Below, one piece after another: positions 18,093 to 19,061 of a DNA stretch of 64,000 nucleotides (positions are counted from its first letter, which is position 1; the number at the start of each line of letters is the position of its first letter). Origin of the DNA: Bacillota bacterium (GTDB lineage: Bacteria; Bacillota; Clostridia; Peptostreptococcales; Anaerovoracaceae); NCBI GenBank assembly GCA_017432725.1, contig JAFRIQ010000036.1, positions 761 through 64,760 on the forward strand. The letters are read 5' to 3'. A program made the translations under genes and the position numbers. The notes under the pieces are model-generated. The model had not been told where the DNA came from. It was given only the letters and a program-made list of their open reading frames with translations, and did no database searches.

Positions 18093-19061
18093 ATGGTAGA
18101 CGTATTCGTTATACATTCCGGAAAGGATTATGAATATGTGAAGACGAGGGTGGAACCTTATCTTCTCGGAAAGATAGATGAAAAGGGAAAACCTGCTAAG
18201 AGAGAAGGCTACTCCAACATCCTTACCCTTGAATCAGGAAAAAGAGGCAGCTGGAAAAAGGACGCAAAGAACAAGATAAAGATGAGCCAGGTGGTCCTCT
18301 TCGTTCTCGGCGACGATTCGTCCAATGACTCTAAGAAAAAGACCATGGGCTGGGAAGTAGCCCAGGCCATAAAATACAACAAACAGCTCATGATAATAGA
18401 TACGGGAAAACACGATCTTCCGTCCTACCTTTATCATCCTGACCGCTTCACGAAACAGACCCAGCCCATAGCGCCCATCCAGACCCTCGAGGAAGTAAAA
18501 AAGAGGATAGACGATTTCGCCAGAGGCTATTACAACATTTTCTCCAAGGATTATGCGAACATGGACGACGAGCAGAAAAAGGCCCATGAGCACGAACTGG
18601 TGGATCAGTACAAGATTTTCCTCCAGACATCGGAAGACCTGGTCGCCAGAAGACAGACCGTGAATTCCTTCTACATTTCGGTCAACAGCGCTCTCGTTAC
18701 TTTGGTTGGCGTTGTCATGAGCCTCGTGGAGATGCCGAGCAAACTTTACGTCATGGCTTTCATGTGCCTTACGGGCATCATCCTCGATATCTCGTGGATA
18801 AACATACTGGATGCTTACGGCACTCTGAACGGAGCGAAGATGAAGGTAATACATCTCATGGAAGAAAAGCTTCCCGTGGCGCTTTACGATTCGGAGTGGA
18901 AGGTCATGAGCGATAAGCTCAACAACAAAAAGTATGTATCGTTTACGAACAGCGAGATGAGGATCCCGAGGATATTCGAAACGGTATACATCGTTTGCCT
19001 CGTTGCTATACTCGCTAAATTCATACTGTCAGCTCTGCCTGCAGTTACGCTATTCGGATAA
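18093..19061 (+). CDS. TIR-like (DUF1863/ThsB-like) domain protein with a C-terminal three-segment membrane module
   Basis: The N-terminus VFVIHSGKDYEYV...VVLFVLGDDSSNDSKKKTMGWEVAQAIKYNKQLMIID follows the TIR-like/ThsB strand-helix pattern and includes a conserved Glu. The C-terminus has hydrophobic segments ISVNSALVTLVGVVMSLV, LYVMAFMCLTGIILDISWINIL and YIVCLVAILAKFILSALPAVTLF. The ATG lies 10 nt after the GH36 stop, with a GAGGA RBS. Confidence 0.7.
   Translation: MVDVFVIHSGKDYEYVKTRVEPYLLGKIDEKGKPAKREGYSNILTLESGKRGSWKKDAKNKIKMSQVVLFVLGDDSSNDSKKKTMGWEVAQAIKYNKQLMIIDTGKHDLPSYLYHPDRFTKQTQPIAPIQTLEEVKKRIDDFARGYYNIFSKDYANMDDEQKKAHEHELVDQYKIFLQTSEDLVARRQTVNSFYISVNSALVTLVGVVMSLVEMPSKLYVMAFMCLTGIILDISWINILDAYGTLNGAKMKVIHLMEEKLPVALYDSEWKVMSDKLNNKKYVSFTNSEMRIPRIFETVYIVCLVAILAKFILSALPAVTLFG

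Follow-up and report, generated by a model that had tools for sequence, protein, structure and literature searches.

A TIR-8xMP fusion protein from a Bacillota bacterium as a candidate self-contained Thoeris-like defence protein

In a 64,000-nucleotide stretch of DNA from a Bacillota bacterium (contig JAFRIQ010000036.1 of assembly GCA_017432725.1; hereafter the window), an open reading frame (ORF) at 18093..19061 on the forward strand encodes a protein of 322 residues in which an N-terminal ThsB-type TIR domain is fused to a C-terminal membrane domain of the 8xMP family. The glutamate predicted to be catalytic in the TIR domain is strictly conserved among the fused proteins, the same two modules recur as adjacent genes in phylogenetically diverse bacteria and archaea, and the gene is a solitary accessory element. 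These observations incline us, with moderate confidence, to the view that the TIR-8xMP protein is a self-contained, Thoeris-like abortive-infection protein, in which the TIR domain would act as a phage sensor and signal generator and the 8xMP domain as its covalently attached membrane effector.

The N-terminal domain is a ThsB-type TIR domain

The N-terminal domain (aa 1-145; 18093..18527, forward strand), which is predicted to be cytoplasmic, is a ThsB-type TIR domain on the basis of family-wide profile matches, a profile-profile match and Foldseek searches with its predicted structure. Among 29 homologues whose N-terminal domains were compared with Pfam models, 27 matched ThsB_TIR (PF08937) at E <= 0.1, with a best value of 9.7e-7, and 19 matched TIR_2 with a best value of 1.2e-8; the nucleoside 2-deoxyribosyltransferase model PF05014 gave a weak match in two (E 0.015). 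A profile of ThsB-type TIR domains was assembled from the TIR sequences in Table S1 of a December 2025 preprint (doi 10.64898/2025.12.03.692087) together with plasmid-borne TIRs, and includes the type IV Thoeris TIR of E. coli 328. When the profile of our domain was compared with it by hhalign, the two aligned with a probability of 95.5% (E 1.5e-8), and H8, G73, E88, A92 and K97 were paired with positions that are invariant in the ThsB-type TIRs.

The AlphaFold2 model of the whole protein has a mean pLDDT of 79, with values of 83-91 per ten-residue block over most of the N-terminal domain. This domain displays a flavodoxin-like alternating fold with the strand and helix order of TIR domains, namely beta-alpha-beta-alpha-beta-alpha-beta, comprising strand 2-7, helix 10-24, strand 41-45, helix 54-64, strand 67-72, helix 85-94 and strand 98-103, followed by a helix at 132-144. 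The best PDB match recovered by Foldseek was the Bacillus cereus TIR domain 8fz9 (TM-score 0.60-0.65 on the target, probability 1.0), and the further top matches were the TIR domains of Hydra TRR-2, SARM1, ThsB, SPARTA and the plant protein RPS4, with the SfSTING TIR domain also listed. A TIR-like domain had been proposed for this ORF in an original prediction made from the sequence alone, and that call is borne out by the ThsB_TIR matches of the homologues, by the hhalign result, and by the solved TIR structures at the head of the Foldseek list. The four features quoted in that prediction are likewise present in the protein: VFVIHSGKDYEYV at aa 4-16, VVLFVLGDDSSNDSKKKTMGWEVAQAIKYNKQLMIID at aa 67-103, the charged helix ELVDQYKIFLQTSEDLVARRQ at aa 168-188, and the hydrophobic helices that follow it.

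The predicted catalytic residue is Glu88, which with Trp87 is encoded at 18351..18356 on the forward strand and which lies at the start of the helix spanning 85-94 (helix alpha-C) in the model. Across 81 representatives of the fused proteins, clustered at 50% identity, E88 is invariant (81/81), W54 is present in 80, and position 87 is Trp in 64 and a different aromatic residue in a further 10. By alignment, E88 corresponds to the invariant glutamate of the ThsB-type TIR alignment, designated A5, and to the glutamate of the 'AHEI' motif in EcThsB2 (8v6t). Hidden Markov model (HMM) alignment likewise placed the window segment 'SWKK...VVLFVLG...TMGWEVAQAIKYNKQL' onto 'EWKK...GVLVIVS...GQKWEIQCAKEEKKKI' of PsTIR, with E88 on the glutamate of 'KWEI'. 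The published active-site mutant of the PsTIR domain is E79Q (doi 10.1101/2024.10.24.620036). Counting along the printed domain sequence suggests, with an inferred offset, that E79 is the glutamate of KWEI. Given these alignments and the strict conservation of the residue, its assignment as the predicted catalytic glutamate stands, in agreement with the earlier proposal that placed this residue in the GWEV motif.

The C-terminal 8xMP domain is a membrane module of conserved architecture

The C-terminal domain (aa 166-321; 18588..19055, forward strand) belongs to PF24838, the octameric membrane protein family (8xMP), which the window protein matches at aa 171-307 with an E-value of 5.5e-31 and a score of 107.6 bits against a cut-off of 30, covering model positions 2-135 of 136. 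In the AlphaFold2 model four long helices follow the N-terminal domain, and Kyte-Doolittle hydropathy analysis with a 19-residue window delineated three hydrophobic segments. The first two constitute a predicted transmembrane hairpin (18669..18809, forward strand), formed by helix 1 at aa 193-212, the five-residue turn EMPSK and helix 2 at aa 218-239, and correspond to model helices 166-211 and 216-259. A third predicted transmembrane helix (aa 294-321; 18972..19055, forward strand) shows a hydropathy peak of 2.5 and coincides with the model helix 280-321. Between the second and third hydrophobic segments lies a charged stretch of 54 residues (aa 240-293; 18810..18971, forward strand) with 9 Lys/Arg and 7 Asp/Glu, which is conserved and predicted to be cytoplasmic.

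Comparison of fused and stand-alone 8xMP proteins revealed 21 core residues that are at least 80% conserved in both forms alike. These are mostly polar or charged and are predicted to face the cytoplasm, including Y173, K174, R186, R187, N246, K249, E257, E268, W269, Y281 and E288. Within aa 240-293 the positions conserved at this level in both forms are Y242, L245, N246, K249, E257, L260, P261, E268, W269, Y281 and E288. This segment, along with the motif Y173/K174/R186/R187 in the helix preceding the membrane, is a candidate ligand-binding or gating region.

The original prediction had also postulated a membrane module and named the SLATT families as ones to compare it with. The module is real, in so far as three hydrophobic helices are present, but it is an 8xMP domain and not a SLATT domain: the SLATT (PF18181-PF18186) and DUF4231 models gave no match at E <= 10 to either the whole protein or its C-terminal half, and membership in SLATT was accordingly rejected at the HMM level. 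The two-helix membrane domain CyanoTRADDas_TM produced a weak match (E 0.07-0.24). Foldseek searches with the C-terminal model yielded no credible match in the PDB (best E 2.0) or among the viral structures of BFVD (best E 0.84), and a literature search for 8xMP and PF24838 found no relevant paper on the family.

An exhaustive profile search placed 2692 representative clusters at 50% identity in the 8xMP family. Among the best 150 of these, 80 are fusions with the TIR-like N-terminal domain seen in the window protein, 60 are stand-alone proteins of about 150-210 aa, and 10 carry other N-terminal domains (DUF7701, AntA-like or unknown). Examples of the last group are DUF7701-8xMP in P0183, P0207 and P0223, and AntA-like-8xMP in P0259. 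The joining of 8xMP to N-terminal regions other than TIR indicates that it acts as an output module to which different input domains can be attached. Viral contigs of IMG/VR yielded no 8xMP relatives of the fused type, and the phage collection that we searched gave one 8xMP match, to a Haematospirillum plasmid record that also carries a phage portal gene.

TIR and 8xMP recur as a two-gene module

Searches of annotated plasmids with tblastn located stand-alone 8xMP genes in 22 records, and 13 of these loci were inspected. In 10 of the 13 a gene for a TIR-domain protein lies directly upstream of the 8xMP gene on the same strand, with the two genes overlapping or separated by <= 23 nt. The ten loci come from Haladaptatus, Haematospirillum, C. 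perfringens, Polaromonas, Synechococcus, Novosphingobium, Halorubrum, Natronorubrum, Natronosalvus and Paenarthrobacter, and thereby span the Pseudomonadota, Cyanobacteriota, Clostridia, Actinomycetota and haloarchaea. The partner TIRs exceed the ThsB_TIR cut-off; at an eleventh locus, in Leptolyngbya, the upstream protein has a TIR_2 match below threshold. Genes flanking the split pairs include type I restriction-modification, PIN, HEPN and caspase genes and toxin-antitoxin clusters.

Given this recurrent pair and the core residues that its 8xMP proteins have in common with ours, we interpret the window gene as a fusion of the two-gene module, and the existence of the split operon would also explain why a partner gene is missing at the window locus. 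The original prediction had found no SIR2/ThsA, cyclase, SAVED or SLOG gene near the ORF; the neighbouring genes of the window agree with this, none of these four classes being present near the ORF there.

Two loci with 8xMP genes are of note for their gene content. The C. perfringens plasmid NZ_CP065633.1 (L032, 3528-5841) bears a cluster of caspase-family, TIR, 8xMP and TIR genes beside a recombinase gene and the cpb2 toxin gene, which looks like a type IV Thoeris system combined with an 8xMP effector. A 2-kb contig (L028) with the stand-alone 8xMP gene P0247 (1047-1679) has in the adjoining region (5-690) a divergently transcribed PIN-domain gene and a small upstream ORF, which may be a toxin-antitoxin pair.

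The gene and its immediate neighbourhood

The ORF begins with ATG, as given in the ORF listing, and its extent of 322 codons plus a stop codon is supported by its homologues. We recovered 372 of these at E <= 1e-3, the majority being full-length proteins of about 315 aa that are colinear throughout with the window protein; their number and colinearity make it clear that the gene is real. They stem mainly from rumen and gut metagenomes, the few named sources being metagenome-assembled genomes (MAGs) of Lachnospiraceae, Bacillota, Erysipelotrichaceae and Spirochaetaceae. An identical protein occurs on 8 metagenomic contigs, and the 6 of them that were examined all have the neighbourhood seen in the window.

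A GH36 gene (15806..18082) ends with a TAG stop codon, and the ATG of the TIR-8xMP gene follows after a 10-nt spacer (18083..18092, forward strand) that contains the ribosome-binding site GAGGA 6 nt 5' of the ATG, the 10-nt distance and the GAGGA site being as the original prediction had described. A terminator-like site was looked for between the GH36 gene and the ORF and none was found; in relatives the position of the spacer is occupied by a hairpin terminator. The TIR-8xMP gene is thus probably co-transcribed with GH36. According to Pfam assignments the neighbours in the window are GH13, GH1 and GH36 genes, a nitroreductase, a LysR regulator, YhbY and an ABC transporter.

Searches of other collections added little to the domain assignments. 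An NCBIfam scan of the window protein assigned no family. PADLOC-DB v2.0.0 returned no significant model, the weak matches being ThsB1 on the N-terminal domain (E 0.0064) and Csx27 (E 0.01), with none on the C-terminal domain; we dismissed the Csx27 match as noise. PHROGs contained no 8xMP family and gave a single weak match of unknown function on the TIR part. In the PDB, sequence searches that started from the protein itself, from its full-length profile or from a profile of the N-terminal domain produced nothing significant, the best hits being RepE, a de novo design and EcThsB2, the last of these marginal.

An accessory insertion with varied genomic neighbourhoods

Three related genomes, L020, L027 and L021, encode GH36 proteins 82-88% identical to that of the window. 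In L020 and L027 (86-88%) the convergent gene for YhbY, a protein 85% identical to its window counterpart, directly follows GH36, and the TIR-8xMP gene is absent, as are the nitroreductase gene (19090-19611, forward strand in the window) and the LysR gene (19670-20575, reverse strand). DNA homology to the relatives stops at the GH36 stop codon and restarts near the YhbY stop codon. These break points, together with the absence of the genes from the relatives, indicate that TIR-8xMP, nitroreductase and LysR form an accessory insertion of about 2.6 kb (18083..20690, not assigned to a strand). In L021, an Oscillospiraceae MAG whose GH36 protein is 82% identical, the gap between GH36 and YhbY holds a different ORF of 656 aa (9326..11296, reverse strand) without a Pfam match; this gap has the look of an accessory-gene hotspot. 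Downstream of YhbY the window has a hairpin terminator (20688-20716, GGCGGTTTGAAAACCGCC) that is unlike its counterpart in L020 and L027 (GCCCGCTCA..TGAGCGGGC), from which it seems that the inserted block carries its own terminator.

The fused homologues are distributed over nine different neighbourhoods, which have no partner gene in common. The nitroreductase and LysR genes were dropped as functional partners because the genes downstream of fused homologues at other loci are unrelated to them; the small ORFs upstream of P0112 and P0084 were likewise dropped, being absent from the window and not conserved. It had been considered earlier that the gene might prove to be a strictly syntenic core gene of the glycosidase cluster; its absence from L020 and L027 and its varied contexts elsewhere speak otherwise.

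A few of these neighbourhoods deserve separate mention. The most widespread fused homologue, P0111 (found in 100 blocks of the collection), lies at L044/L045 (1690-10972) between a Schlafen/AlbA_2-HATPase_c_4 gene and a dndA/dndE/dndD/dndC-like cluster, which is a defence-island context. One fused homologue is near a HipA-like gene, and two are near a recombinase or TnpB gene. Three homologues of the fused type, divergent at 46-60% identity to the window protein, are located just downstream of a TRAM/tRNA_U5-meth_tr (RlmD-like) gene (L011/L012, 6068-7426; L014, 5980-7344; L046, 3578-4969), with a zinc-ribbon gene preceding in two of the three. This RlmD-like site is either a common ancestral site or an insertion hotspot.

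Functional prediction and its alternatives

If the TIR-8xMP protein is a Thoeris-like abortive-infection protein, phage infection would be sensed by its cytoplasmic ThsB-type TIR domain, which would cleave NAD+ by means of Glu88 to generate an ADP-ribose (ADPR)-derived signal. The 8xMP domain would serve as a covalently attached, homo-oligomeric membrane effector with three transmembrane helices, whose conserved basic cytoplasmic face (R186, R187, K249 and their neighbours) would receive either this signal or the conformational change of an activated TIR ring. The 8xMP domain would then open or disrupt the membrane, thereby halting both the infected cell and the phage. A sharper version of this proposal, to which we give rather less credence, is a Thoeris system in one polypeptide, where a phage-triggered, membrane-tethered TIR ring might gate its own pore-forming domain via a local ADPR-derived nucleotide or without any diffusible signal. 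The suggestion of a one-gene defence or suicide module in the original prediction gains strength from the accessory nature of the gene and from the tight two-gene TIR/8xMP operons on plasmids and in defence contexts, and we retain it as a conditional one.

Several observations weigh against this proposal. The window protein by itself is sub-threshold in Pfam for both TIR_2 (PF13676; 15.3 bits against a cut-off of 28) and ThsB_TIR (13.9 against 21.2), and its TIR identity rests on the family-wide, profile-profile and Foldseek matches. In the Foldseek searches the folds of nucleoside 2-deoxyribosyltransferase (NDT), DNPH1 and BcmB attained TM-scores of 0.50-0.59, nearly equal to those of the TIRs. 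The 8xMP family, with its three predicted membrane helices, is uncharacterised and has no solved relative by sequence or by fold; its fusions to DUF7701 and AntA-like domains imply that it is arguably gateable without a nucleotide. When the generator and the receptor of a signal are fused, the amplification afforded by a diffusible signal is lost, and hence the fused form may work differently from the split one. The published class that appears to correspond to the split pair, discussed below, is a predicted Thoeris type only. As regards genomic context, the window gene and most fused homologues are found among housekeeping genes and not in defence islands, and the presence of three divergent homologues at one RlmD-like site could reflect long vertical residence. 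The G+C fraction across the gene (0.42-0.50, versus 0.44-0.54 in the flanks) is not anomalous; being uninformative, it was dropped as a compositional sign of recent transfer.

The same evidence permits other interpretations, of which we judge the least improbable, though an unlikely one, to be that the roles are reversed. The TIR domain would then be the killer, depleting NAD+, and 8xMP a membrane anchor, sensor or oligomerisation scaffold that detects a phage-induced membrane event and gathers the TIR domains. In the characterised bacterial TIR fusions known to us, the TIR domain is the NADase effector, and TIRs of this kind were set aside in the recent Thoeris survey (doi 10.64898/2025.12.03.692087). 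TIR activation generally requires self-association, which an oligomeric membrane scaffold would supply; the invariance of E88 and the varied N-terminal domains found on 8xMP, as might be expected of a generic scaffold, also accord with such an arrangement. Nevertheless, the TIR of the split operons is a bare ThsB-type protein of 129-155 aa encoded upstream of 8xMP, which is the sensor-plus-effector layout of Thoeris, and conservation in 8xMP is highest in the cytoplasmic polar and basic residues rather than in the membrane helices, as befits a ligand receptor more than a passive anchor. A defence role would be dispensed with altogether if the protein were a conflict or addiction module, with a regulatory enzyme domain attached to a membrane protein that is toxic, and either stabilising the accessory block or acting in bacterial competition. 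That split pairs often lie amid plasmid toxin-antitoxin genes and that the fused gene moves as a solitary, tightly packed insert are compatible with this scenario; yet no conserved antitoxin-like partner accompanies the gene across the nine contexts, neither a secretion signal nor a secretion-system neighbour is present, and ThsB-type TIRs have so far been linked to phage sensing, so that we consider it improbable.

We assign a very low likelihood to a housekeeping function, in which the protein would be a membrane-tethered nucleoside or nucleotide N-glycosidase, similar to NDT, DNPH1 or BcmB, operating in salvage or envelope metabolism, with the co-expression with sugar genes being meaningful. 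The near-parity of the corresponding folds in Foldseek, the weak PF05014 matches in two of the 29 homologues, and the probable co-transcription with GH36 could be cited in its favour. Against these stand the profile searches, which favour TIR/ThsB widely (27 of 29 homologues versus 2 of 29, in addition to hhalign), and the DNPH1 and NDT Foldseek scores, which are lower than those of the best TIR matches. Moreover, close relatives possess the same glycosidase cluster without the gene, the contexts of the homologues are unrelated, and 8xMP is linked to TIR genes and not to salvage genes.

Implications

The Thoeris-like reading, if correct, would provide a first functional handle on 8xMP, a large family found in both bacteria and archaea, as a membrane effector coupled to TIR signalling. 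The one-polypeptide version would also demonstrate that a signal generator and a signal-gated effector can be fused. As a single protein of 322 aa, the fusion would constitute a minimal system for studying phage sensing by TIR domains and the opening of their effectors, with stoichiometry and proximity fixed by the fusion itself. The architecture is widespread, with 80 or more clusters at 50% identity, most of them from gut and rumen Clostridia.

Pfam recognises only the 8xMP half in most of the fused members. Stand-alone TIR proteins were excluded from the recent survey of Thoeris systems (doi 10.64898/2025.12.03.692087), whose scope therefore left out the fusion, and an operon-based defence screen, separate from that survey, removed single-gene candidates. 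With surveys discarding stand-alone TIRs and single genes, and Pfam detecting the 8xMP half, this class would have escaped notice, above all in gut and rumen Firmicutes, whose TIR-8xMP genes reside in housekeeping operons. We found no published description of the fused TIR-8xMP form.

Relationship to known TIR-based defence systems

Thoeris is defined by a layout in which a ThsB TIR gene and a separate effector gene form an operon, from which the window gene departs. The aforementioned survey listed 29 putative Thoeris types, eleven of them validated, and the validated membrane effectors comprise Macro-TM, DUF2270/ThsF, SLATT/ThsH and an ion channel (doi 10.64898/2025.12.03.692087). Its Table S1 and Fig. 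1C also contain a predicted class termed '3TM', consisting of a TIR and a three-helix membrane effector (doi 10.64898/2025.12.03.692087). One TIR assigned to '3TM' in that table shares 87% identity with the Haladaptatus TIR whose gene directly precedes an 8xMP gene, and from such TIR sequences we infer that '3TM' is 8xMP. The window protein would then contain the same two modules, with common 8xMP core residues and a TIR domain of matching class according to the hhalign comparison, but in one polypeptide and without a partner gene.

In Thoeris II, V and VII the ADPR-derived signal of the ThsB TIR activates an oligomeric membrane effector with basic cytoplasmic pockets (doi 10.64898/2025.12.03.692087). 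By analogy, the TIR-8xMP protein may follow the same logic, from TIR to membrane effector, as these three types with their Macro-TM, DUF2270/ThsF and SLATT/ThsH effectors. It differs from them in that the effector belongs to another family (the Macro, DUF2270 and SLATT HMMs did not match the window protein at E <= 10) and in that two genes and a diffusible signal are replaced by fused modules. The SLATT effectors (SLATT_1 to SLATT_6 and DUF4231) resemble 8xMP in having a cytoplasmic helix, a transmembrane hairpin, a conserved cytoplasmic region and an association with TIR or nucleotide signalling; however, in a comparison made by HMM only, none of their models matches the window protein or ten other 8xMP proteins, and 8xMP adds a third, C-terminal membrane helix. 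The experimentally studied TIR that is closest by motif is from type IV Thoeris, where 'EWKKKVRTRIIRSDGVLVIV...GQKWEIQCAKEEKKKI' of PsTIR parallels 'SWKKDAKNKIKMSQVVLFVL...TMGWEVAQAIKYNKQL' of the window protein. In type IV Thoeris (PsTIR, E. coli 328 TIR; doi 10.1101/2024.10.24.620036), though, the effector is a soluble caspase-like protease and not a membrane domain.

The union of a TIR domain with a second defence module in a single polypeptide is itself a feature of TIR-SAVED, TIR-STING, TIR-APAZ/SPARTA and PycTIR. In these proteins a soluble sensor is joined to a TIR domain that acts as NADase effector, whereas the partner in the window protein is a membrane domain that elsewhere occupies the effector position of TIR operons. 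What is new relative to the known systems that couple TIR signalling to a membrane effector is the single fused protein.

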